A program made the translations under genes and the position numbers. A stretch of 45,350 nucleotides of DNA, from the IMG/VR virus record IMGVR_UViG_2541047917_000003. The stretch is one strand, 5' to 3'. Under the pieces are notes generated by a model, which was not told where the DNA came from, did not search any database, and saw only the letters and a program-made list of their open reading frames with translations. Of the stretch, positions 1 through 31,659 are shown one piece after another; position 1 is the first letter of the stretch; every line of letters begins with the position of its first letter. Source of the DNA: a virus. Its lineage: Duplodnaviria > Heunggongvirae > Uroviricota > Caudoviricetes.

Positions 1-3000
1 TCAGCTAATCGTGATGCCTGCAGTGGCTTTCTTCATCACCACAACCAGCAAATCGCTGATACTTGCTGTGGGATACCAGTTATTTACCCACCATGCTGAT
101 ACAGAAAACTCCAGTGTCATTACACCACTGCCTGCAGGCATATCAATAACACCCGTGTAAATCAGAGTATTATCCAGAGCCGTTCGGTTATAAATTTCAG
201 CCCCGTTTTTCTTCACTATCAGGCAGCATGACGAATAAGTATCGCTATTCTCCCGCTCATGTCTGGCACCGCAGAAAGCCACCGCTGGAATAACAATTTG
301 CCGGTCAAACGACTGATCGTCATAAACCCTGACGGTAATAGTCCCTGATGGCCACCGCTCCGGTGCACGGGAGTCCCGGGGGAAAGCTTTGCCCACTGTT
401 TTAACGAGATCGCCTTCAATCTGGTTCGCGGACAATTTTCCCAGAACCCGACAGTTCTCGTTAATCGTGACGTTGTTGAGCGTCCCGGAGTTCGCATTCA
501 CGTTACCGCTGATATCGGCATTTTTCGCCGTCAGCCGCCCGTCCGGTGTCAGGGAAAATGCCGGAGGATTACCGCCGCTGGTAATGGTGGGAGCCGTCAG
601 ATATTTCAGGAACACTTCATTCATGAATATCTGATCGCCCTGACCAACAAACATCGGCTTTGTGTTGCCATTCGCAGGATTAATCATCGCAATCCTGTCT
701 GCCGCCAGCAGCACCTGACTCTGCATACCGTCGGGGGTGTTCTCAATACCGGCACCAATACCCGCGATATAAAGGCGTCCATCCTGCATCTGCTGCAGCT
801 TCACAGCCCACATGCTGTTCAGGTTATTATTTGTATCAACCTGAACCTTCTGTATCTGCTGGATTGCCGCACTCTGGTCTTCCAGTTTCTTATTGACAGT
901 CTGCGTGATTTCATTGCTGACATCCGTAATGGACGTCCTGATTTCAGCCAGGTCAGGCGCAAGCTGACCGTTATCAATCTGCGTCCACAGCTCCTGAGCC
1001 AGATGTGTTTTCCCTATCTCTCCTTTGAAAAAATCCAGGTAACCTTCCGCATCATCGCTCGCCCGACCGACAGCCTCCACGAATGCCGATTTGCCAACAG
1101 TATTCACACTGCGGATATAAAAGTAATAATCATGGCCCGGTTTGATATTGATACTGGCGGCTATCCAGTACAGCGCCGTACCAAGATAACGCGCGCTTGT
1201 TTCAACCTGCCTGATATCCGCAATCCGCTTTTCCGAGAACCAGAACTCAAACTGTACCGTCGGATCATAAACCGCAAGATGCGGCGTGGCGGTTATCTGA
1301 AAATAGCCCGGCGTCAGCTCAATCCGAGACGGCGCTGCCGGTGCGGCAATCCGGAACGATACCGATGCCGGATCGCCCTGCTGCCCCCACGCATTTACCG
1401 CCCGGACTGTCAGACTGTAATTTCCCAGAGCCAGCTGCCTGAAGCGGTAAGTGGTTTCCGTCGTCCGGGCCGTGCTGACCAGCCGCTCACTGCCGTCATC
1501 CGCTGCCACGGTCAGGCGAAGCATAAAGCTCACGCCCTTCACCACCTTCGGCGTATCCCAGCGCGCCAGCACCTGGTATTCCCCGCTGTCTGCGGTGACT
1601 TCTGCGGTCAGATGCTGCACTGCTGGCGGCGTGACACCATTCACCGTGCCGCTCTGGTTACCGTCAAAGTGCGCCCCGTTATCCACGATGGCCTCTTTCT
1701 CCGGTACATGCTGCACTGCAGTGATGGCATACATACCGTCGTCGTTCTCACGGATACTCACACAGCGGAACAGGCGCTGGCGCAGCGTCGGCAGCTTCAG
1801 CCCCCACACGCTGTATTCAGCAACGCCGTCAGGAACACGGCTCACTTTCACCTTCACGCCGTCGGTGACGGACTGAACCTCCACGCTGACCGGACTTCCC
1901 TGCCCGTCAACCAGGCTTATCAGCGTGGTGCCGGAAGATGTCAGCGTGATTTCACGGTCGAGCGTCAGCGTCCGGGTCTGGCTGTTCACCGCCAGCACGC
2001 GACCACCGGTGCTGATACCGGCATAGTCATCATCGCAGATTTCAATAACATCGCCCGGTACATGGCGAAGCCCTTCTGCGCCCACGCTGAAATCCACGGT
2101 CTGCGTTTCCAGCAGCTCCGTTTTAATCAGCCACAGCCCGGCGCGGTGTGCCTGCCCCCGGCTGGTACAGCCAAAGGCATCCATCTTCGTGACGTTACGA
2201 CCGTAACGGGCAATGGCCTGCGTGTCCTCCACAAGCTCTGTCGCCGTCTCCCAGCCGTTATCCGGGTCAATCCAGTTCACCTCAACGGCATTATGGCGGT
2301 CCTTCAGGGCGCTGAAACTGTAGCGGAACGGTGCGCCATCATCCGGCATCACCACATTACTGCGGTTATAGGTCCACACCTTATCTGATGGTCGGTCCTG
2401 CACGAACGTCAGCGTCTGCCCGTTCCATACCGGCATACAGCGCATCGCCGAGCAGAAATCACTGAGAACATCCCACGCCTTACGCTGTGTGGTCAGCCAG
2501 GCATTACAGGTGATGCGCGGCTCCGTGCCACCAAAGCCATCCGGCACTGACTGATCGCAATACTGGCCGATGACATACAGCGCCCATTTGTCCACATCCG
2601 CCGCACCAAGACGTTTCCCCATGCCGTAGCGCGGGTGGGTCAGCATATCCCACAGACACCAGGCCATGTTGTTGCTGTATGCCGGTTTAAACGTCCCGTC
2701 CCAGATACCGTTGTATTGCCGCGTCTGCGGGTTATAGTTCGACGGCACCTGCAGAATGCGCCCGCGAAGATGATAATTACGGCTCACCTGCTGGCTGCCG
2801 AACTGTTCCGAGTCCACCTGCACACCGACCAGTGCCGTGTTCGGGTAGCACTGTTTCACATCGATGATTTCGGTGTATGACAACCAGAGCGTTTTGTTCT
2901 GCAGCTGGTCTGTGGTGCTGTCCGGTGTCATCCTGCGCATCCGGATATTGAACGGGCGCGGCGGCAGGTTATCCACCACCACCGAGGCCAGATACTGCGA

Positions 3001-3480
3001 GGTGGTTTTGCCCTTAATGGTGATGTCTTTTTCCGTCACCCAGCCACCGTTACGCTGTATCTGAACCAGCAGGCGGACTTCCGACGGATTCCGGTCCCCC
3101 TTTGAAGTGGTTTCCACCAGAGCCTGCACACCGAAGGTAAAGCGCAGACGGTCGATGTTTGCAGACGTGATGGTCCGGGTGATCGGCGTGTCATATTTCA
3201 CTTCCGTACCCAGCACCGTCTCGGATCCGGAGGATTCAAAACCCTCCGGCGGTGTCTGCTCCTGCTCACCTGCCCGGAACACCACCGTGACACCGGCGAT
3301 GTTGGTATTCCCTTCACTGTCCAGCACCGGCGTACTGTTCAGCAGCACGCTTTTTAATCCATCCACCGGACCTTCTATCGGCCCTTCGCTGATGGCATCG
3401 ATCACACTCAGTAACTGCGTGGATTTCAGGTTGTCCTTCGCTTCGCGCGGGGTATGCCCCTTACTGCTGCCTTTACCCAT
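1..3480 (-). CDS. J: Tail tip / host-specificity protein J
   Basis: 1159-aa ORF ending at window position 1-3 (stop). Collinear with lambda J, last gene of the tail operon; C-terminus ...[16 protein letters not shown]. Confidence 0.95.
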
Positions 3481-3540: not shown

Positions 3541-4212
3541 TCAGCGACCAATCACCACAACCTGACCACCATCCCCTTCGTCTGCCGTGCTGATCTCCTG
3601 AGAAACCACCCGCGACCCCACACGCATTTCACCGTACAGAACAGGCAAAACATTGCCCTGGGCAACCATGTTATCCAGTGAGGAGAAATAGGTGTTCTGC
3701 TTACCGTTATCCGTTGTCTGTGTGCGGGGAGTTCTGGCTTTCGGTGCCAGCATCTGAGCCACACCGCCGAGCACCATACTGGCACCGAGAGAAAACAGAA
3801 TGCCGGTCATACCACCGGCCCCAATGGCTGTCCCCCATGCTGCAAGGGTGACTCCGGCGGTAAAGAATGATCCGGCAATGGCGGCTGCCCCCAGGACAAT
3901 CTGGAATACGCCACCTGACTTGGCCCCGGCGACTCTGGGAACGATATGAATCACAGCGCCGTCAGGCAGAGCCTCATGTAACTGCGCCGTTAATCCGGAC
4001 GTGCTGACATCCTGCCCGGCAATACGTACCTGATACCAGCCGTCGCTCAGTTTCTGACGAAACGAAGGGAGCTGTGTGGCCAGCGCCCGGATGGCTTCAG
4101 CCCCCGTTTTCACACGAAGGTCGATGCGGCGGCCAAATCGTTGTAAATCCCCGTAAAGGCAGATGCGTGCCATGCCCGGTGACGCCAGAGGGAGTGTGTG
4201 CGTCGCTGCCAT
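3541..4212 (-). CDS. I: Tail assembly protein I
   Basis: 223-aa ORF between K and J; overlaps the K 3' end by ~103 nt as in lambda. Confidence 0.9.
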   Translation of the reverse strand: MAATHTLPLASPGMARICLYGDLQRFGRRIDLRVKTGAEAIRALATQLPSFRQKLSDGWYQVRIAGQDVSTSGLTAQLHEALPDGAVIHIVPRVAGAKSGGVFQIVLGAAAIAGSFFTAGVTLAAWGTAIGAGGMTGILFSLGASMVLGGVAQMLAPKARTPRTQTTDNGKQNTYFSSLDNMVAQGNVLPVLYGEMRVGSRVVSQEISTADEGDGGQVVVIGR

Positions 4213-4853
4213 TTGTCGGTATACCTCTCTCGTTTGCTCAGTTGTTCAGGAATATGGTGCAGCAGCTCGCCGTCACCACAGTAAATGGCGGCATGATTCG
4301 GCACAGATGAACCAAAACAGCACAGCAGCACATCGCCCGGCTGCGCCGCTGACAGCGGCACCTGATACAGCCCTGTGGCCTCCAGATTATCCAGATAGAG
4401 ATTCTGACCGTTACGCCACCAGTCATCCTCACGATGAAAATCCGGCATCTCAATCCCCGCCAGATGGTAAGCATCCCGGAACAGCGTGTAACAGTCCGTC
4501 ACCCCGTGCTCAAAGAGCCGCCCGGTGAGATGCGGCACACAGCGGAACTTATGAATCGCCCCCCGGCAGACCAGCCACCACGGCAAATCACTCTGCACCT
4601 GCAGTCGCCGGTCGGCCTCACTCAGCCAGGGCAGACCACCGGGATGGCTGTGCACCAGCGCCACAATCTCACCCTGCATTTCTGCCCGCAGCCAGTCCTC
4701 CGGCGACATCCGGAAATACTCCTCCGGCTCACCGGAGATATTTACGCAGGTAAGATATCTGTCTCCCTCCGGCGTTCTCACCACAAAGCCGCACGACTCC
4801 GCTGGCGCACATCGCCGGGCGTGCGCCAGAATCGCTGATTCTGTCTGTGTCAT
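4110..4853 (-). CDS. K: Tail assembly protein K (JAB/MPN-like plus NlpC/P60-like)
   Basis: 247-aa ORF with ATG 5 nt after the L stop; HSHPGG...S..D JAMM-like motif. Lambda K is usually annotated as 199 aa from an internal Met (MSPEDWL); the longer form includes the metal-binding N-terminal part. Confidence 0.85.
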   Translation of the reverse strand: MTQTESAILAHARRCAPAESCGFVVRTPEGDRYLTCVNISGEPEEYFRMSPEDWLRAEMQGEIVALVHSHPGGLPWLSEADRRLQVQSDLPWWLVCRGAIHKFRCVPHLTGRLFEHGVTDCYTLFRDAYHLAGIEMPDFHREDDWWRNGQNLYLDNLEATGLYQVPLSAAQPGDVLLCCFGSSVPNHAAIYCGDGELLHHIPEQLSKRERYTDKWQRRTHSLWRHRAWHASAFTGIYNDLAAASTFV

Positions 4854-4858
4854 GGGAT

Positions 4859-5557
4859 TTACTGCGAAAGTTTGTTAATGGAAAGGAAGCCGCCAAAGTT
4901 GCCGACGTTATTGCGAAACTTACAGCCACTCAGGCATTTGCTGCATTTATCCTTCGTGATATCGGATGTAGGCTGGTCATATTCATCAGCGACAGCCGGA
5001 CCGTTATAACCGCACTCATCACCGCGATAGGTCCAGGTGCAGGTATTAGCCAGCATGATGCGCCCCGGAAAAACAGCACCATCCGTTTCCGTCGGCGTGG
5101 ACAGTACAAAAGAGGCACTGACCGCGCTCAGTTCGCTGCACTGCTCGATGCGCCAGCGGCTGATCACCTCCTGCTCCGGATCGGCGTCGCTGTTTCCGTT
5201 GACGAAGTTCACCGCATCCAGAAAACGGGCATAAACCTTACGCCTGACCACCGTTCCGCCGACCAGACTCTGCAGGTCTTCCGCCATCCCGGTGACCATA
5301 CCGTACAGGTTAGAAACCGTCAGCGTGGGGCGCGTACTGGTGCCTTTGCCATTCAGTTCGAAACCACTCCCCTGAATGGGATACGCCTGATACTGTCGCC
5401 CCTGCCAGGTGACCGGCTCACCTTTTTCGTTCTGCTAATTACAGAAAAAATAACGTTCTCCACCAACCTCTGTCAGATCGATTTCCCAGAGCACCACGCA
5501 GGCAGACTGCTCCGCACGGGTGCATTCATTCAGTGTTTCCTGTCGGATATCCTGCAT
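4859..5557 (-). pseudogene. L: Tail tip assembly protein L interrupted by an in-frame amber codon at codon 41
   Basis: ATG at 5557-5555 overlaps the M stop (TGATG). The frame reads MQDIRQETLNECTRAEQSACVVLWEIDLTEVGGERYFFCN, then TAG (+ strand cta at 5435-5437), then QNEKGEPVTWQGRQYQ... in the same frame. The ORF track shows only the downstream 146-aa ORF 4859..5299 starting at an internal Met. Confidence 0.8.
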
Positions 5558-5886
5558 CAGTTCACCACCTGTTCAAACTCTGCGCTGAACTCAACACGCA
5601 ACATACTGACCCGCGACGACCATTTTGCGCAGGTCACCTTTATCTGCCGCCACTCATAAGGCGGCGTCCACAGAAAGGATTTCCAGCCCCCGTGCTCTTC
5701 CAGAAACGACTCCAGTACCGTGGCCTCCTCACGGGGGACAGAAAGCGTCACGCTGTACGTTTTCAGGTTGGCATTCAGCCCGGCAGGCGCTCGCTGAGAA
5801 TAGCCATCACCAAAGCGCACCTTTCTTACAGAAGGGACCGAAGCCACATCCATACCGGGTTTCACTTTCCAGCGGAAGGTCTTCAT
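5557..5886 (-). CDS. M: Tail assembly protein M
   Basis: 109-aa ORF collinear with lambda M, between H and L. Confidence 0.9.
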   Translation of the reverse strand: MKTFRWKVKPGMDVASVPSVRKVRFGDGYSQRAPAGLNANLKTYSVTLSVPREEATVLESFLEEHGGWKSFLWTPPYEWRQIKVTCAKWSSRVSMLRVEFSAEFEQVVN

Positions 5887-8462
5887 CGTCCACCTCCGGA
5901 GAACAGGCCACCATCACGCATCTGTGTCTGAATTTCATCACGGGCACCCTTGCGGGCCATGTCATACACCGCCTTCAGAGCAGCCGGACCTATCTGCCCG
6001 TTCGTGCCGTCGTTGTTAATCACCACATGGTTATTCTGCTCAAACGTCCCGGACGCCTGCGACCGGCTGTCTGCCATGCTGCCCGGTGTACCGACATAAC
6101 CGCCGGTGGCATAGCCGCGCATCAGCCGGTAAAGATTCCCCACGCCAATCCGGCTGGTTGCCTCCTTCGTGAAGACAAACTCACCACGGTGAACAATCCC
6201 CGCTGGCTCATATTTGCCGCCGGTTCCCGTAAATCCTCCGGTTGCAAAATGGAATTTCGCCGCAGCGGCCTGAATGGCTGTACCGCCTGACGCGGATGCG
6301 CCGCCACCAACAGCCCCGCCAATGGCGCTGCCGATACTCCCGACAATCCCCACCATTGCCTGCTTAAGCAGAATTTCTGTCATCATGGACAGCACGGAAC
6401 GGGTGAAGCTGCGCCAGTTCTGTTCACTGCCGGTCAGCATCGCCGCCATATTATGCGCAATACCATCAAAGGTCTGCGTGGCTGCACTTTTAACCTGCGA
6501 CATACTGTCCGTGGCGCTCTCTTCCCACTCACTCCAGCCTGACCTGAGGCCTGCCATCCAGCTCCCGCGAAGCTGGTCTTCAGCCGCCCAGGTCTTTTTC
6601 TGCTCTGACATGACGCTATTCAGCGCCAGCGGATTATCGCCATACTGTTCCTTCAGGCGCTGTTCCGTGGCGTCCCGCGCTGCCTGCCGGTCAGTCAGCC
6701 CCCGGTTTTTCGCCTCAATGGCTGCCCGTTTTGCCCGTTGCTGCTGTGCGAATTTATCCGCCTGCTGCGCCAGCGCGTTCAGGTGCTCCTGATACGTGAC
6801 CTTATCGCCAAGTGCAGCCAGCTGGCGTTTGTACTCCAGCGTCTCGTCTTTATGCGCCAGCAGGGATTTCTCCTGTGCGGACAGCTGGCGACGTTGCGCC
6901 GCCTCCTCCAGTACCGCGAACTGACTCTCCGCCTTCCACAAATCCCGGCGCTGCTGGCTGATTTTCTCATTTGCTCCGGCATGCTTCTCCAGCGTCCGGA
7001 GTTCTGCCTGAAGCGTCAGCAGGGCAACATGAGCACTGTCTTCCTGACGATCGCCCGCAGACACCTTCACGCCGGACTGTTTCGGCTTTTTCAGCGTCGC
7101 TTCATAATCCTTTTTCGCCGCCGCCATCAGCGTGTTGTAATCTGCCTGCAGGATTTTCCCGTCCTTCAGTGCCTTGTTCAGTTCTTCCTGACGGGCGGTA
7201 TATTTCTCCAGCGGCGTCTGCAGCCGTTCGTAAGCCTTCTGCGCCTCTTCGGTATATTTCAGCCGTGATGCCTCAGACTCGGCCCAGTCCTTTGCTGCCA
7301 TCTCTCTGGCCTTTTCAAGATCGGCCTGCAACGTGGCGGCTGAAAGTCCAAGTTGCGCATTCGCTCTGTCCTCCCATGCTCCCCGGAGATTGGCAAGAAA
7401 TGCTGAGGTTTTACCGCGCCGGTGGCTCCGGCTCTGATACCACTGCCATTTTTTGTCCGCCTCATCAAAAGCCTTTTCTGCTTTCTCCAGCATTCCCTGG
7501 GCAGTGTCCGGGCGACCAATATCCAGCACCGAATCCCACATGGATTTGAATGCCCGTGCTGTCCTGTCTGCCCAGGTCTCCAGCGTGCCCATGTTCTCTT
7601 TCAGGCGGCGGGTCTGGTCATCAAACCCTTTCGTTGCGGCCTCGTTCGCCGCCTGCAATGCGCCGGCTTCATCTCCGGAACGCTGCAACTGAGCAACATA
7701 CGCAATCTGCTCCGCCGTCACGTTATGGAACTGACGTGCCATCGCTGTCAGTCCCGACGTCGGGTCTGTGGTCAGCTTCCCGAAGGCTTCAGCGACCTTG
7801 TCCACCTCCACGCCGGATGCAGAGGAGAAACGCGCCACACTCTGGCTGATCGCCTCAAACTGCTCACCACCACGCACACCGGCATTCACCAGCGCCGTCA
7901 GTGACTCGCTGGTCTGGTTAAACGTCAGCCCTGCCGCCTGCCCGGCTCTGGACAGGACCAGCATACGATCTGCCGTCAGTCCCGCCTGATTGCCGGAAAG
8001 GACCAGCGTTTTGTTGAAATCGGACAGGGTTGAGTTGCCCTGATACCAGGCATACGCCAGCGCACCGGTCGCCACCGCCAGCGAGGTGGCCCCCACCATC
8101 GGCAGGGTGATCGCACCGGCAAGCCCCCTGAACATGGGGATCATCCCGCCGAAGGAGTCCTTAACCTGACCCCCCTGTTGCAGCAGGATCAGCCACGGGC
8201 TTTGCCCGCCTGCAAGCTGCGTGGCCACGTCGGTGAACTGTGCAGGCAGCATACGCATGGCGGCTTTATACTGTCCGACGGAAATCCCCGCTTTCTGTGC
8301 AGCCAGCGCCTGCCGGTTCATTGACTGTTCAACGACTGCCGCTGTTTTTTTCGCATCACTTTCCGTACCGGAAAAATGACGCCTGACTCTGGCCATCTGC
8401 TCGTCAAATCTGGCCGCATCCAGACTCAAATCAACGACCAGATCGCCTACCGGTTCAGCCAT
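5883..8462 (-). CDS. H: Tail tape measure protein H
   Basis: 859-aa ORF starting MAEPVGDLVVDLSLDAARFDEQ; Gly-rich C-terminal segment; position after G/T. Confidence 0.95.
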   Translation of the reverse strand: MAEPVGDLVVDLSLDAARFDEQMARVRRHFSGTESDAKKTAAVVEQSMNRQALAAQKAGISVGQYKAAMRMLPAQFTDVATQLAGGQSPWLILLQQGGQVKDSFGGMIPMFRGLAGAITLPMVGATSLAVATGALAYAWYQGNSTLSDFNKTLVLSGNQAGLTADRMLVLSRAGQAAGLTFNQTSESLTALVNAGVRGGEQFEAISQSVARFSSASGVEVDKVAEAFGKLTTDPTSGLTAMARQFHNVTAEQIAYVAQLQRSGDEAGALQAANEAATKGFDDQTRRLKENMGTLETWADRTARAFKSMWDSVLDIGRPDTAQGMLEKAEKAFDEADKKWQWYQSRSHRRGKTSAFLANLRGAWEDRANAQLGLSAATLQADLEKAREMAAKDWAESEASRLKYTEEAQKAYERLQTPLEKYTARQEELNKALKDGKILQADYNTLMAAAKKDYEATLKKPKQSGVKVSAGDRQEDSAHVALLTLQAELRTLEKHAGANEKISQQRRDLWKAESQFAVLEEAAQRRQLSAQEKSLLAHKDETLEYKRQLAALGDKVTYQEHLNALAQQADKFAQQQRAKRAAIEAKNRGLTDRQAARDATEQRLKEQYGDNPLALNSVMSEQKKTWAAEDQLRGSWMAGLRSGWSEWEESATDSMSQVKSAATQTFDGIAHNMAAMLTGSEQNWRSFTRSVLSMMTEILLKQAMVGIVGSIGSAIGGAVGGGASASGGTAIQAAAAKFHFATGGFTGTGGKYEPAGIVHRGEFVFTKEATSRIGVGNLYRLMRGYATGGYVGTPGSMADSRSQASGTFEQNNHVVINNDGTNGQIGPAALKAVYDMARKGARDEIQTQMRDGGLFSGGGR

Positions 8463-13872: not shown

Positions 13873-14566
13873 CCGGGACTGCAGTGTCTCCCGGACATCA
13901 CCCGGTAGATGGCTGTAGGGGTTGCCATCCACCTTATGGCTGCCGCTGTAAATCAGCGTGATTTCCACGCCCTGTTTCTCCAGCGCAGCGCCGTAATTAC
14001 TGTGAGCCATCATGACGCCGATGGAGCCTGTCCGGGCGGTCTGCGTGACCAGACGCCGGGAGGCGGCGCTGGCAAGCAGCTGACCTGCACTGCAGTTCAT
14101 GTCGTTGGCCAGCGCCCATACCGGCTTTATGTCACGCACACGGGCGATGATGTCAGCACAGTCAAATGCTCCCGCCACCATCCCGCCCGGTGTGTCCATA
14201 TCGAGCAGAATGCCGTCCACCATCGGATCGCTGGCAGCCTGTTGCAGACGAGCGATAATGCCGTTGTAACCGGTCATTCCCGAATACGGCTGCAGCGCCC
14301 GCGTCCGGCTGACCAGCGTACCGGACACCGGCAGCACGGCGATGCCGTTCATGACCTGATAACTGCGGGCCTGTCGTGGTCCGTCATCATCACCGGATAA
14401 TGCCAGCGTCGCGAGTGCCTCCTGGGCAGTCAGGCTGTCGCCGGACACCGCATCCGTCAGGCGGCTGATCCCAAGCTGGCCTGCAAGCGCACAAAAGAAA
14501 ACCCGCGCATAGGCGGGTTCAAGCATCAGCGGCTCATTAAAGGCCATGCTGGCAATATGCGGGAGA

Positions 14567-14586
<20 letters not shown>
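13267..14586 (-). CDS. C: Head maturation protease / scaffold C
   Basis: Lambda C-like sequence begins at an in-frame GTG (codon 50 of the 488-aa ORF; SD AGGAGGAG upstream), giving 439 aa. Confidence 0.85.
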
Positions 14587-18267
<3,681 letters not shown>

Positions 18268-19903: not shown

Positions 19904-20473
19904 ATCATAACGTCCGGTTTCTTCCGTGCCAGAACCGGACTCGCTGGCATGATGAAATATGTGTACCCGGTAACCCCGGTGTGCATCGTTTTTGATTATT
20001 CCCGCACACTCGCGCAGAAGGAGTTCCCCGTCGGGCTACGGTCTCTGTTAATACGGGAATACGGCGACGATACAGCGCATGATGTGTCAGGCTTGAATAC
20101 CTTTATCCTTTAAAAGGGATATCAGTTAAGTTATCCCGTGTAGGGTATAAGCCATTATCAAAGCCACTCTGTAGGGAATGGCTTTTGTGATGGCATCACT
20201 TACTCTTTACGCTGCTATCCCACTCATCCCGGAATTTTGATGGGTTATTGAAACCTTCTGCTGACATAACAACTCCTTCAATGTTTGGCTGAAATTAGGA
20301 TGTCTTTCCATCAGTCCGCCACCACAAAGAATCCTTTTTGCCATAAGGCAGGAGGTTCATCTTTCAGTGGCTGCCGGTGTTATTTCCCCACTTACTGGCT
20401 TGGGTTGTTTCGTGGTACTGCCGTTAACTGGTGGCGCACAGATTTAGTTAAATCCGTTCTCGCCTGAACTATC

Positions 20474-20503
20474 TTTTACATACCCGGATTGTGGGGATGT
20501 AAA
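20474..20503. repeat. ~30-bp element TTTTACATACCCGGATTGTGGGGATGTAAA, one of a small repeat family
   Basis: Near-identical copy at 20922-20953 inside the KilA-N ORF (encodes ILHPSQSRYVKT); longer related hairpin-containing elements at ~20128-20195 and ~20481-20552 in the 700-bp non-coding stretch. Confidence 0.6.
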
Positions 20504-20612
20504 TCACGGTTTCATTATCAAGCCCACCCGTAGATGGGCTTTGTAATGGATAGCCGTTGCTCAGTTCTAGTAATGCTTTGATTTTTTCGATAACGCAGTT
20601 TTGCGTTTGCCA

Positions 20613-21134
20613 TCAGCACGCGATATCGAGAGTCAACTGCAGTTGCTCGCGCCAGTACTCAACATTTGCTTCAATAACCGGCTTATCCCATCGCCAGCGA
20701 GCCATCTCTCTTGCCCCATTGCTGGCTTTTGATTTCCGGTCATCGCGAATGCGACATGCTTGCTCATATTTCTGCTGCTCAGTCAGTTCACCGCGAAGCA
20801 GACTATCAATGTGCAGGTCGCACCACACAGCAAAACGAGCATCACACCAACGGGCAAATGCAACTGAAAGTTTTGGATGTAGCCACGTACCACCACCCCT
20901 GTCCTTTCGTGCCTTGCTGGTTTTTACATACCTCGATTGTGAGGGATGTAAAATTTGAGATTCTTTCCCGGTCAACGCTTCGTCTAAAGCACGAACGTAT
21001 TCAAGCGTTTCTGCCAAACGCATCCAGTTATCAATGCGTTTCCCAAATCTCTCAGCAACACCTGTGACGTTGATCCAACCATCAGTGTTGAAACTGACAA
21101 TTTCACCTTTGTAATTAAGTGGCACGATATTCAT
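20613..21134 (-). CDS. KilA-N domain protein
   Basis: 173-aa ORF; motif GGTWLHPKLSVAFARWCDARFAVWCD typical of the KilA-N DNA-binding domain; downstream of Rz. Confidence 0.7.
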   Translation of the reverse strand: MNIVPLNYKGEIVSFNTDGWINVTGVAERFGKRIDNWMRLAETLEYVRALDEALTGKESQILHPSQSRYVKTSKARKDRGGGTWLHPKLSVAFARWCDARFAVWCDLHIDSLLRGELTEQQKYEQACRIRDDRKSKASNGAREMARWRWDKPVIEANVEYWREQLQLTLDIAC

Positions 21135-21250
21135 AACGTTTACCTACCATTTGAAATGAACCTTTGCCGCACAGGAAACCAGCCCACCGAGGCTCGCCAG
21201 CACTAACTGGTATCCTCAAAGGCCCATTCCAAAGGGGCAGGTTCGGTGTA

Positions 21251-21307
21251 AAAAAAACATGCGTTGCGGTACGCATTTATTGCAAAAAAGCCCCGCATCG
21301 CGAGGCT
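21251..21307 (-). terminator. Two tandem intrinsic terminators downstream of Rz
   Basis: On the - strand: GCCTCGCGATGCGGGGC + TTTTTT (21284-21307) and ATGCGTACCGCAACGCAT + TTTTTTT (21251-21276). Confidence 0.6.
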
Positions 21308-21338
21308 CATTAAATGGACTTTGTGATTTGCAAAAAAA

Positions 21339-21797
21339 TTATTTCAGACATTGCGTCCTGATGTACTCCTGCAGGTAGTTAACCTGCGCGGTTATCCTGT
21401 CGATTCCACTTCGGAGACGGTAATAATTGAGTTCAGCATCTGCTGTAAGTCTTGGGCTTTCTCCATCGCCCATGCCGCTGGCTCCGGTCGTTGACTTTGC
21501 ACAGGTGGCGGCGACTTGCAGGCGCTTACGCCCAGCAGAAACATCAGCACGGAGACTTTCGATAGTCGCGTTAGCATCAGCAAGCTCCTTTGTGTATCTT
21601 GCGTCGAGTTCTGCTACATCACGTTGACGCTTCCGCATGTCAGCGATGGTGGCGTTCGCCTTCTCCAGTTCACTGGCCTTGTTATCGCGCTGCTCTTTGT
21701 AGGCGATTGCGTTATCACGGTAATGATTAACAGCCCATGACAGGCAGACGATGATGCAGATAACCAGAGCATAAATAATCGCGGCGACTCTGCTCAC
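21339..21797 (-). CDS. Rz: Spanin inner-membrane subunit Rz (i-spanin)
   Basis: ORF 21339..21812; likely GTG start overlapping the R stop (GTGA), giving (M)[30 protein letters not shown]..., close to lambda Rz N-terminus; TM helix plus coiled coil. Confidence 0.85.
21392..21583 (-). CDS. Rz1: Spanin outer-membrane lipoprotein Rz1 (o-spanin), embedded in Rz
   Basis: 63-aa ORF in the +1 frame inside Rz; signal peptide with lipobox (LLGVSAC) and Pro-rich segment. Confidence 0.75.
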
Positions 21798-22327
21798 TGA
21801 TCTATCCCCCAACAGGCTAATGCGCTTTCCTGGTCACGACGAATAACCTGTCCATAGCAGTTATTTGAACGTATGCGGCAATCGCGCCCACCATCTTTTA
21901 TCCACCAGCGAATCGCCTCGCATGCACCTTTACGATCACCGGCATTCAGCCGCTTATAAAACGTCGACGGGAAACACTTACCGGGGCCAATGTTATAGGG
22001 ACAAAATGACGCGATACCCGCTTTCTGTGGTTCGGTCAGTGGCACTTTAATATTGCGCTCCACCCATGCCAGCGCCTTATCCCGTTCAATGGCGTTAACC
22101 TGGTCGCATTTTTCCTTCGACAGTTTCATACCGGGAAAAACGGGTTTTCCATCCACCACCGTGGCACCCCGACAGATGGTCCAGATGCCGGAACCATCGC
22201 GGTATGCCGTTGTGTGGTTACCTTCTTTTTCATCCAGAAACTGGTCGAGAATATCAGGCGCAGGCGCACCGACGGCAATCAGTGCCAGAACGGCAGCCGA
22301 CAGGCCGTATCTGATTTTTGCGTTCAT
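21794..22327 (-). CDS. R: SAR endolysin (GH24 lysozyme with signal-anchor-release N-terminus)
   Basis: 177-aa ORF; N-terminal hydrophobic segment [16 protein letters not shown] then T4-lysozyme-like catalytic region (EG.HTTAYRD.SG.WTIC.G); resembles Qin/phage-21-type lysozymes, not lambda R. Confidence 0.9.
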
Positions 22328-22432
22328 GGATATTTATCAGGATTTATCGGTTTCTGAACCCTGGATATGTTTATCTGTCCCGGCCTGTTGAATCAGGCAA
22401 GGAATAGTTAAATACAATAGAGAGGATTGTTT

Positions 22433-22705
22433 ATGGACAATAGCACCATTTCTCTACAGGAGTTGCTCGACTGCATTTCCAGGCTTCGGGATGATGTAAA
22501 TGCCCTTACTGTCGCATTTTCATATCTGGCATTCTCAATTCCCAAGGAACAAATGCAACCAACACTGGCATCGCTCCAGCTTGAATCACTCAACCCCAAA
22601 TGGTCCCAGCAACAACAAAATTCTTTCAAGTGGCTGGCGGTATTACTGGAAGAAAAATATGCTGGTGAAATTACCATTTCGGCGGAGTCTTCAGAGAACC
22701 AGTAA
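22433..22705 (+). CDS. Hypothetical 90-aa protein on the opposite strand inside the lysis cassette
   Basis: ATG at 22433 preceded by AGAGGA; ORF track lists 22427..22705 from an upstream TTG. Convergent with and overlapping the 3' end of the 22671..23015 gene. No family recognised. Confidence 0.4.
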   Translation: MDNSTISLQELLDCISRLRDDVNALTVAFSYLAFSIPKEQMQPTLASLQLESLNPKWSQQQQNSFKWLAVLLEEKYAGEITISAESSENQ

Positions 22706-23015
22706 TTCTTCCCGGTAGCTTTCCTTTGTAGGTTATCCACACATTCTGCGCCTCTAAAATTATGGGGCGCTTTTCCGGCGACAGCTCATCCCCTTCACAT
22801 AACCCGGCAGCAACATCCAGGAAGACCTGTCTGATGCTCCTTCTGGCTGCTGCCTCATAAAACTCCAGCGCGGCACCTTCAACACGGTCCAGCGAGATGT
22901 CCAGGTCAAAAATTTCACCGTCAAAGCGTTTTTTGTCCCGTAACGCTAAAGTTACCGTAACTTTATTCTCAAAATTGCGGATCCCTTTCACAATCAGTTC
23001 ATAGTTTTGAGTCAT
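22671..23015 (-). CDS. Hypothetical protein between holin and endolysin (possibly YdfR/DUF1327-like)
   Basis: 114-aa ORF starting 5 nt after the holin stop; N-terminus MTQNYELIVKGIRNFENKVTVTLALRDKKRFDGEIFDLD. Family assignment is from memory. Confidence 0.5.
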   Translation of the reverse strand: MTQNYELIVKGIRNFENKVTVTLALRDKKRFDGEIFDLDISLDRVEGAALEFYEAAARRSIRQVFLDVAAGLCEGDELSPEKRPIILEAQNVWITYKGKLPGRITGSLKTPPKW

Positions 23016-23824: not shown

Positions 23825-24907
23825 ATGAAAAAATTAACAGTGGCAATTTCTGCTGTAGCTGCATCAGTACTGATGGCGATGTCTGCTCAGGCAGCTGAAA
23901 TTTATAATAAAGACAGTAACAAGCTGGATCTGTACGGGAAAGTTAATGCTAAGCACTACTTCTCCTCTAATGATGCAGATGATGGTGATACTACTTATGC
24001 CCGTCTTGGCTTCAAAGGTGAAACCCAAATCAACGATCAACTGACTGGTTTCGGTCAGTGGGAATATGAATTCAAAGGCAACCGCGCTGAATCTCAAGGT
24101 TCCTCCAAAGACAAAACCCGTCTTGCATTTGCAGGCCTGAAATTCGGTGACTACGGCTCAATCGATTACGGCCGTAACTACGGTGTAGCATACGACATCG
24201 GTGCGTGGACTGACGTTCTGCCAGAATTCGGTGGCGATACCTGGACCCAAACAGATGTGTTCATGACTGGTCGCACCACTGGTGTTGCAACCTATCGTAA
24301 CAACGACTTCTTTGGTCTGGTCGATGGCCTGAACTTTGCTGCTCAGTATCAGGGTAAAAATGACCGCACTGACGTAACTGAAGCCAATGGTGATGGTTTC
24401 GGTTTCTCCACTACTTATGAGTATGAAGGATTCGGCGTGGGTGCAACCTATGCTAAATCAGATCGCACTGACGGTCAGGTCGCCTATGGTAAGAGCAAAT
24501 TCAATGCCTCCGGCAAAAATGCGGAAGTATGGGCTGCAGGCCTGAAATATGATGCGAACAATATCTATCTGGCTACCACATATTCTGAAACTCAGAATAT
24601 GACCGTTTTTGGTAATAACCATATTGCAAACAAAGCACAAAACTTTGAAGCAGTAGCACAATATCAGTTTGACTTCGGTCTGCGACCATCTGTTGCTTAC
24701 CTTCAGTCAAAAGGTAAAGACCTTGGTGTTCATGGTGACCGAGACTTAGTCAAGTATGTCGATGTCGGTGCTACTTACTACTTTAATAAAAACATGTCCA
24801 CTTTTGTTGATTACAAAATCAACTTAATTGACGATAGTAAGTTTACCAAAACAGCTGGTATTGATACCGACGACATCGTCGCTGTAGGTCTGGTGTATCA
24901 GTTCTAA
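23825..24907 (+). CDS. Outer-membrane general porin, OmpC/OmpF family (phage-encoded Lc/NmpC-like)
   Basis: 360-aa ORF with signal peptide [30 protein letters not shown]...GKVN start and C-terminal ...VAVGLVYQF; sits between Q and S on the opposite strand as nmpC does in DLP12. Confidence 0.9.
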
Positions 24908-28106: not shown

Positions 28107-28804
28107 ACACTTGCTCCTTTTAGTCCGAACTTAGCTTTGATTTCTGCGATCTTCGCCAGAGCCTGTGCACGATTTAGAGGTCTACCGCCCATGACAGGAA
28201 GTTGTTTTACTGGTTCAGGGATCGCCTCACCACGGTTAATTCTCGCAGTCATATGGACAAGCTCATCTGCGGCCTTACGGCGTAATTCCGCATCAGTAAG
28301 CGCATTGGCCCGCATGTTCTGATACAGGTTGGTAACCAGCCAGTAGTGCGCGTTTGATTTCCACGGATAAGACTCCGCATCCGGATACAGGCCTCGCTTC
28401 CGGCAATACTCGTAAACCATATCAACCAGCTCGCTGACGTTTGGCAGTCCGGCGATAACGGATGCTTCTTCCCGGCACCATGCAACAAACTGCCCGGGTG
28501 ATGGCAGAAATGGTCGATTCTGCCGACGGGCTACGCGCATTCCTGCGTTAACCTGTTCCATCGTGGTGATCCCGTTTTCCCGAAAAGCCAGAACCCACTG
28601 GCGACGGATTTCGTTCACTTCGTTCTGGTCACGGTTAGCCAGGCTCGCCGGGAAAGTTGCCAGTAACTGGCTGAACACACCGTTGATGATCTGCGCTACC
28701 TGCTGTACCTGCGGCTTTTCATCGTACTGTTCCGGCATGTTGTTGGCGATCCGACGCATCTGCTCACGGTCAAAGTTAACCATCTGTGCGGCGATGTTTT
28801 TCAT
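28103..28804 (-). CDS. P: Replication protein P (DnaB helicase loader)
   Basis: 233-aa ORF collinear with lambda P. Confidence 0.95.
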   Translation of the reverse strand: MKNIAAQMVNFDREQMRRIANNMPEQYDEKPQVQQVAQIINGVFSQLLATFPASLANRDQNEVNEIRRQWVLAFRENGITTMEQVNAGMRVARRQNRPFLPSPGQFVAWCREEASVIAGLPNVSELVDMVYEYCRKRGLYPDAESYPWKSNAHYWLVTNLYQNMRANALTDAELRRKAADELVHMTARINRGEAIPEPVKQLPVMGGRPLNRAQALAKIAEIKAKFGLKGASV

Positions 28805-29631
28805 AGATCCACCCCGTAAATCCAGTCTGTGTTTGTCAGGTCGAGTTTTGGTTTGCTGGCTGTCACGCCTGCCTGTTGCTTGTTACGGTTGATTTCGAGT
28901 TGGGTCCACTTATCGCGGAGTTTGGCCGGGCTCAGCACGTTACCGGACCAGAAGTTGTCCTGGCATGCCCAGCGGAACAGCACGCACATGTCGCGGTGGT
29001 TACGTCCGTCACGTTCACGCATCAGGCGGATATCGTTAGCCCACCCAGCAAAATTCGGTTTTCTGGCTGATGGTGCGATAGTCTTCACCATGTCAAACAT
29101 CCACTCTGCGGCGGTCAGGTCTTCTGCTGTCCCCCACTTGCTGCCGCTCTGAATTGCAGCATCCGGTTTCACCACAGAAAGGTCGTTTTCTGGCTGGTCA
29201 GAGGATTCGCCAGAATTCTCTGACGAATAATCTTTTCTTTTTTCTTTTGTAATAGTGTCTTTTGTGTCCCCCTGTTTTGAGGGATAGCAATCCCCCAATT
29301 TGAGGGATGTTTTATCCCTCGTTTTAGGGGATTTTCCCTCGTTTTGAGGGATGCACCATTCTGAGATGTTTTTATTTGGTCCAAACATGCCGCCTTGCTG
29401 CTTGATAATATTCATTCTGACGAGTTCTAACTTGGCTTCATTGCACCGTTTGACAGGTAACTTTGTAATCTCGCTAAGTTGAGAATCGGTGATTCTGTCC
29501 ATTGGTTTATTCCACCCATAGGTTTTACGCAGAATGGCAAGCAGCACTTTAAACTGTCGCTTGGTCAGATCTGCGCCCGAATAAGCCTCAAGCAGCATAT
29601 TTGATAGTCTGGCGTAACCATCATCGAGATC
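28801..29631 (-). pseudogene. O: Replication initiator O, 3' portion (codons ~24 to end) separated from its start by an IS element
   Basis: Lambda O-like sequence from ...DLDDGYARLSNMLLEAYSGADLTKRQFKVLL... to the end. The ORF-track start at 29661 is a GTG inside the IS left end (MWITIAPFVT-DLDD fusion). Confidence 0.85.
29266..29353. repeat. ori-lambda iterons (four ~19-bp O-binding repeats) with adjacent AT-rich region
   Basis: tcccccctgttttgaggga / atcccccaatttgaggga / atccctcgttttagggga / tccctcgttttgaggga inside the O coding region, next to a T-rich stretch (29221-29260). Coordinates approximate. Confidence 0.85.

Positions 29632-31659
<2,028 letters not shown>

Follow-up and report, generated by a model that had tools for sequence, protein, structure and literature searches.

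A probable recent amber mutation in the tail-tip gene L of a lambda-like prophage carrying IS100 in replication gene O

The stretch of DNA analysed here (45,350 nucleotides, referred to throughout as the window) holds a natural lambda-like prophage adjoining ybhC, in which the gene for the tail-tip hub protein gpL is interrupted by an amber codon at position 41. This stop is very probably a recent, lineage-specific loss-of-function nonsense mutation in a prophage that is already defective and decaying. A preliminary description of the same DNA had proposed a recent inactivating mutation and a defective prophage, and both proposals are supported by the comparisons presented here, with neither the Glu41-to-stop change in L nor the IS100 insertion in O present in the outgroups or in a sister prophage of 99.9% identity. 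For annotation, this means that the prophage is to be recorded as defective, with L as a pseudogene containing an internal stop and O as interrupted by IS100.

The L frame and its relation to lambda gpL

Translation of L from its ATG reads MQDIRQETLNECTRAEQSACVVLWEIDLTEVGGERYFFCN, followed by TAG at 5437-5435, and the same frame continues past the stop as QNEKGEPVTWQGRQYQ... down to the TAA at 4861-4859, with the 231 other codons all open (Table 1). That one stop alone breaks a frame of 232 codons which otherwise matches intact homologues exactly argues against a chance pattern, and we reject that reading of the sequence. Base 5557 is common to the L start codon and the TGA stop of M, forming a TGATG overlap. 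The first in-frame start past the TAG is the ATG at 5299, 46 codons downstream, with no Shine-Dalgarno-like sequence before it (upstream 20 nt: CGGTTTCTAACCTGTACGGT); the 146-residue open reading frame beginning at this codon is matched by PF05100 and is probably not expressed. The in-frame TAG, the TGATG overlap, and the 146-residue frame from an internal Met had all been described previously, and all are confirmed in the sequence.

With Glu restored at codon 41, L matches TIGR01600 phage_tail_L ("phage minor tail protein L", NCBIfam) with an E-value of 1.9e-99 and a score of 331.5 bits, the cut-off for this family being 70.75. L aligns over its full length to lambda gpL (PDB 8iyk_L, E 1.8e-156), differing from the lambda gene at 31 of 699 nucleotides and from the protein at six residues, the Glu41-to-stop change among them. 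In lambda gpL (PDB 8iyk chain L) Glu41 lies within ...RYFFCNEQNEKGE..., the lambda DNA has GAG at codon 41, and Glu is found at this codon in every relative examined. The preliminary description had given Glu as the lambda residue at this position and had suggested alignment to lambda L as a check; the PDB chain and the lambda DNA bear this out. The likeness to lambda extends to the 232 codons of the frame, to the M-L-K-I-J synteny, to the TGATG overlap of M and L, and to the residue encoded at 226 of the 232 codons, whereas codon 41 in the window is TAG and not GAG, leaving at most 40 residues to be made from the normal start. The wider tail-tip order, H-M-L-K-I-J, is also that of lambda, with H of 859 and J of 1159 residues. 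Since the TAG interrupts the frame needed for the full-length protein, the locus is best classed from its sequence as an L pseudogene or amber allele, and not as a functional member of the family.

Table 1. Positions of the features discussed, numbered along the window
Feature	Position	Strand	Remark
K, JAB/NlpC-P60 tail assembly protein	4110..4853	-	intact; ATG 5 nt past the L stop
L frame, 232 codons plus stop	4859..5557	-	open except at codon 41; tail-tip hub protein gpL
L start and stop codons	ATG 5557-5555; TAA 4861-4859	-	read from the sequence
146-aa ORF from internal Met87 (L residues 87-232)	4859..5299	-	ATG at 5299 is codon 87; probably not expressed
Amber TAG, L codon 41	5435..5437	-	derived base T on the coding strand (A on the + strand) at 5437
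N-terminal L ORF, 40 codons (MQDIR...RYFFCN, stop)	5435..5557	-	translatable from the L start
M, distal tail protein	5557..5886	-	intact; no difference from the sister prophage; stop overlaps the L start
O 5' remnant, first ~23 codons	31586..31659	-	ATG at 31659; remainder of O at 28801-29631
Target-site duplication AGATC, 5 bp	29627..29631 (left); 31586-31590 (right)		single AGATC in the sister prophage
IS100 (IS21 family), 1,954 bp, in replication gene O	29632..31585	+	second disabling lesion
istA	29718-30740		IstA, NF033546
istB	30737-31519		IstB, NF006616

A base change confined to one lineage

Among complete E. coli genomes, the nearest intact L genes are those of WWCOL-236 (wastewater, Korea) and CT282 (avian, China), both of which encode WP_089477221.1 and match the window L at 698 of 699 positions, with the sole difference being G versus T at gene position 121, corresponding to window position 5437 (GAG versus TAG). 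On the plus strand this position is C in the prophage of E. coli S1-CAM-01-C and in all four of the outgroups that cover the site, the outgroups used for polarisation being WWCOL-236, CT282, NCCP 13717, D6, and J31. The T at 5437 is derived and GAG is ancestral, and the single G-to-T change that had been suggested from the window alone is borne out both by the nearest alleles and by the GAG of lambda.

The S1-CAM-01-C prophage (human stool, Switzerland; NZ_CP145718.1 3109239-3152640) is a sister of that in the window, with both lying at the same site with int adjoining ybhC, and with 99.85-99.96% identity over the entire window. It has GAG at L codon 41 and an intact O. The two differ by 39 substitutions, 15 of which fall within the last 620 nt of J, and by a 1,954-bp insertion in the window, a fortieth listed mismatch at 29634 lying inside the end of IS100 and being an alignment artefact. 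With every annotated gene of the sister prophage translated in both genomes, only L (Glu41 to stop) and O are disrupted in the window, the remaining head, tail, lysis, regulation, recombination, and integration genes being of equal length and free of internal stops.

Several further features emerge from this comparison. The 15 of 39 substitutions in window positions 1-620 (the 3' end of J on the minus strand, encoding its receptor-binding end) form a cluster whose states alternately match different outgroups, and this looks like a small recombination patch, not point mutation. An 11-bp deletion in the window (~26109) falls in a DUF1364 remnant annotated as partial in the sister, and is probably without further consequence. 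The sister L carries a private missense change of its own, Tyr177 to Cys (position 6267 of locus L124), in the Fe-S domain between Cys173 and Cys182, with Tyr present at codon 177 in all other alleles examined. The gene for a 360-residue OmpC/Lc-type porin, which differs from the sister copy by R345G, lies at window positions 23825-24907 on the plus strand as a moron between Q (quuD-like) and the essD-like S, R, and Rz, a placement also found in DLP12 and PA-2-type late regions.

The TAG is private to the lineage of assembly GCA_000460835.1. A scan with a degenerate 29-mer carrying TRR at codon 41 gave no match to a stop (TAA, TAG, or TGA) or to TGG at this codon in IMG/VR, GTDB species representatives, or JGI metagenomes, with the same 29-mer carrying GAR, used as a positive control, found on at least 120 viral contigs in IMG/VR. 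An 81-mer centred on the TAG had no 81/81 match at 5,349 places in 3,665 complete E. coli genomes, the best being 80/81, and no perfect match in 71 phage records; across IMG/VR, GTDB representatives, JGI metagenomes, E. coli, and phage records, no other sequence with a stop at codon 41 was found. In public collections the exact 40-residue product ending in a stop occurs in one E. coli draft assembly only, GCA_000460835.1 (scaffold KE702048.1). Comparison of 15,557 nt showed no difference between this scaffold, counted from its base 77, and the window from base 1 on; the assembly is thus the window's own source. The other three 40-residue matches are contigs ending at ...TGTAATGA or ...TGTAAT, and two of the three thus show the first two bases of a Glu codon, reading GA(G). 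Other matches to the 146-residue fragment comprise contig edges, frameshifted long-read assemblies, and one unrelated allele with an amber codon at Trp51.

In a number of unrelated short-read assemblies, contigs end exactly at L codon 40/41 or begin exactly at codon 87, probably at graph branch points between paralogous L copies, and in protein look-ups such pieces from contig edges look like truncated L products. Scaffold KE702048.1 itself ends 76 nt past the J stop, which leaves lom and the side-tail-fibre end of the prophage outside it.

Predicted consequences for gpL and for the phage

In the lambda tail-tip hub gpL is a trimer, with three copies per virion; residues 1-166 form the HDI beta-sandwich domain, which together with the HDII domain of gpJ makes up the last tube ring beneath the gpM ring, and residues 154-232 form a [4Fe-4S] domain with ligands Cys173, Cys182, Cys205, and Cys212 (PMC10721106). 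The four Fe-S cysteines of the window L (in NTC, DEC, DKC, and SGC motifs) are all encoded 3' of the TAG and so are untranslated from the normal start. With GAG changed to TAG, and Glu41 to amber, translation of L would end after 40 residues, giving a product without about three quarters of HDI and without the entire C-terminal [4Fe-4S] domain; because most of the hub domain and all of the Fe-S domain would be lost, the allele is most likely null. No gpL trimer would then be available to join gpJ, gpI, and gpM, and the tail tip would not be built. Reinitiation at Met87 was considered and rejected as a route to a functional protein, with residues 1-86, half of HDI, missing from its product and with the ATG lying far from the stop and lacking a Shine-Dalgarno-like sequence; rescue by reinitiation is unlikely. 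The amber may also lower the output of K, since its start lies 5 nt past the L stop without an evident Shine-Dalgarno sequence, and its translation may depend on ribosomes completing L.

The second lesion is a full-length IS100 inserted 69 nt into O, at about codon 23/24, all 1954 bp of which align at 99.9% identity with plasmid-borne copies from Salmonella and E. coli. The insertion sequence in O reported in the preliminary description is thereby identified, complete with its 5-bp target duplication, and it is missing from the sister prophage. No relative with the O::IS100 junction was found in the collections searched. An apparent junction match in EC-107 was rejected, as IS100 lies at a different position there. 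This strain (E. coli O80:H26 EC-107, H125; NZ_CP043217.1 4603951-4604632) carries a lambdoid prophage with IS100 near cII and the replication genes.

Lambda genetics has established that L is required for tail-tip assembly, so that in a non-suppressing host the prophage alone would be expected to make no tails, and tailless particles are a reasonable expectation. The insertion in O should, however, already block phage replication after induction, and the tailless phenotype may thus be moot; as replication should fail with O also broken, few particles of any kind are expected. With IS100 in the replication initiator gene of the same prophage as the L amber, the prophage as a whole would be defective and decaying. 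The phenotype could further be masked by gpL from co-resident lambdoid prophages, with E. coli genomes that contain an L homologue having a median of 2 per genome. Induction of the strain is predicted to yield no plaque-forming phage unless a resident lambdoid prophage recombines with this one or complements it. Termination-context studies in E. coli have identified UAG followed by C as a relatively weak terminator, and full-length gpL, probably as E41Q with Gln replacing Glu41, might be made in trace amounts. ARAGORN found no tRNA gene in the 45-kb window, and hence there is no suppressor in cis.

Origin of the stop

An error in the consensus of a 2013-era short-read draft scaffold, with the strain truly carrying GAG, is unlikely. 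The TAG is present in one assembly only, and no second, independent assembly or read set with it was found; most E. coli genomes have several copies of L, and the end of KE702048.1 at 76 nt past J indicates that prophage repeats troubled the assembly. Collapse of paralogues, however, cannot account for a T that is absent from every known allele at this position, and substitution errors are rare in a high-coverage consensus. The scaffold also carries about 10 other lineage-specific substitutions of normal spectrum, mostly G:C to A:T, together with a clean IS100 and its target duplication, and these private substitutions and the clean insertion argue that the lineage has genuinely diverged. The preliminary description had raised, as the other source of an isolated amber, a laboratory suppressor-sensitive mutation; in the form of a sus mutant of lambda, for example an Lam allele in a lysogen, this we reject as having next to no probability. 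The window L does resemble the sus tail-gene mutants of the Campbell collection in having a single amber in an essential tail gene, a lone amber in an essential late gene being the classical signature of such mutants, and its rescue on supE, supF, or supD hosts would likewise be expected. It differs from lambda at 31 of 699 nucleotides and at 5 residues besides codon 41, though, and stands in a prophage that has an 859-residue H and a DLP12-like late region (quuD, essD, nohD, porin) and that is most closely related to prophages carried by wild strains from wastewater, birds, and human stool. In contrast to the sus mutants, the window is not a lambda laboratory background, has no known history of selection in suppressor hosts, and carries O::IS100 alongside the amber. 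In a literature search no relevant report of mapped Lam alleles (ambers in lambda L) was found.

That L still works in the prophage's own host, with functional gpL made through a host amber suppressor tRNA or high readthrough of UAG-C, is quite improbable. The frame past the TAG is perfectly intact, and three copies of gpL suffice per virion (PMC10721106). This intactness is explained simply by recency, with the gene one base from its nearest allele, and the window contains no tRNA gene. Coliforms naturally carrying amber suppressors were reportedly described by Marshall and Levy in 1980; a literature search for natural amber suppressors found nothing relevant. A further version, in which the amber is tolerated or used, with a host suppressor or efficient UAG-C readthrough and the downstream frame kept by selection, is very doubtful, the stop being conserved in no relative and thus giving no sign of selection for it; if true, L and the production of infectious particles would be conditional on the translational state of the host. 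A programmed readthrough or recoding site finds no support, with the stop seen in no homologue from the collections searched and no tRNA gene in the 45-kb window. There is also only the slightest likelihood of adaptive domestication, that is, of a knock-out of L selected in the host, for example because it stops infectious particles whilst other prophage functions are kept. Two independent disabling hits (O::IS100 and the L amber) with the other genes all intact would be in keeping with such selection, as would the single disabling hits in relatives. Against this, one nonsense change among ~9-12 coding changes has a probability of ~0.3 by chance, the allele is a singleton, and a tail-tip knock-out would give the host no protection from lysis after induction, so that its benefit is not obvious.

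Recent decay is the reading preferred here. Changes in the structural genes of the window lineage comprise 3 synonymous, 5 missense (J R1086C, H A479V, V V174E, E R221H, and A A59T), and 1 nonsense. When every single-base change that genes J to Nu1 could undergo is counted, 3.4% create a stop, and the probability of at least one nonsense change among 9-12 unselected coding changes is ~0.27-0.34. Neutral or relaxed evolution would be expected to yield such an amber, which is unremarkable under relaxed selection, although ~9 lineage-specific coding changes give almost no power to demonstrate relaxation, and the counts behind the lineage-specific dN/dS are too few to separate relaxed from purifying selection. 

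Comparable lesions are found elsewhere. The relative in E. coli NCCP 13717 (97.8% identical) has a portal gene with an internal stop together with an ISCro1 element (IS66 family) (positions 14563-16164 and 20343-22958 of locus L139), and adds a second case of early decay to this prophage lineage. The Logan assembly of SRR29324731 contains an unrelated L, 25 nt from that of lambda, in which TGG is changed to TAG at codon 51 (W51am; positions 2743-3441 of locus L126); this is an independent lesion in an otherwise intact H-M-L-K-I-J block.

Beyond annotation the amber is of little importance, but as an intact, 99.9% identical sister is available for comparison, the prophage shows clearly what the very first stage of such decay looks like. 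What is observed is ordinary, known decay of a lambdoid prophage, with no new mechanism. As in the cryptic lambdoid prophages DLP12, Rac, Qin, and the defective pool of O157 Sakai, nonsense mutations and insertion sequences inactivate morphogenesis and replication genes whilst most genes remain intact; unlike these, the prophage in the window is at a very early point in its decay, with two lesions, no large deletions, and an intact sister still at hand.
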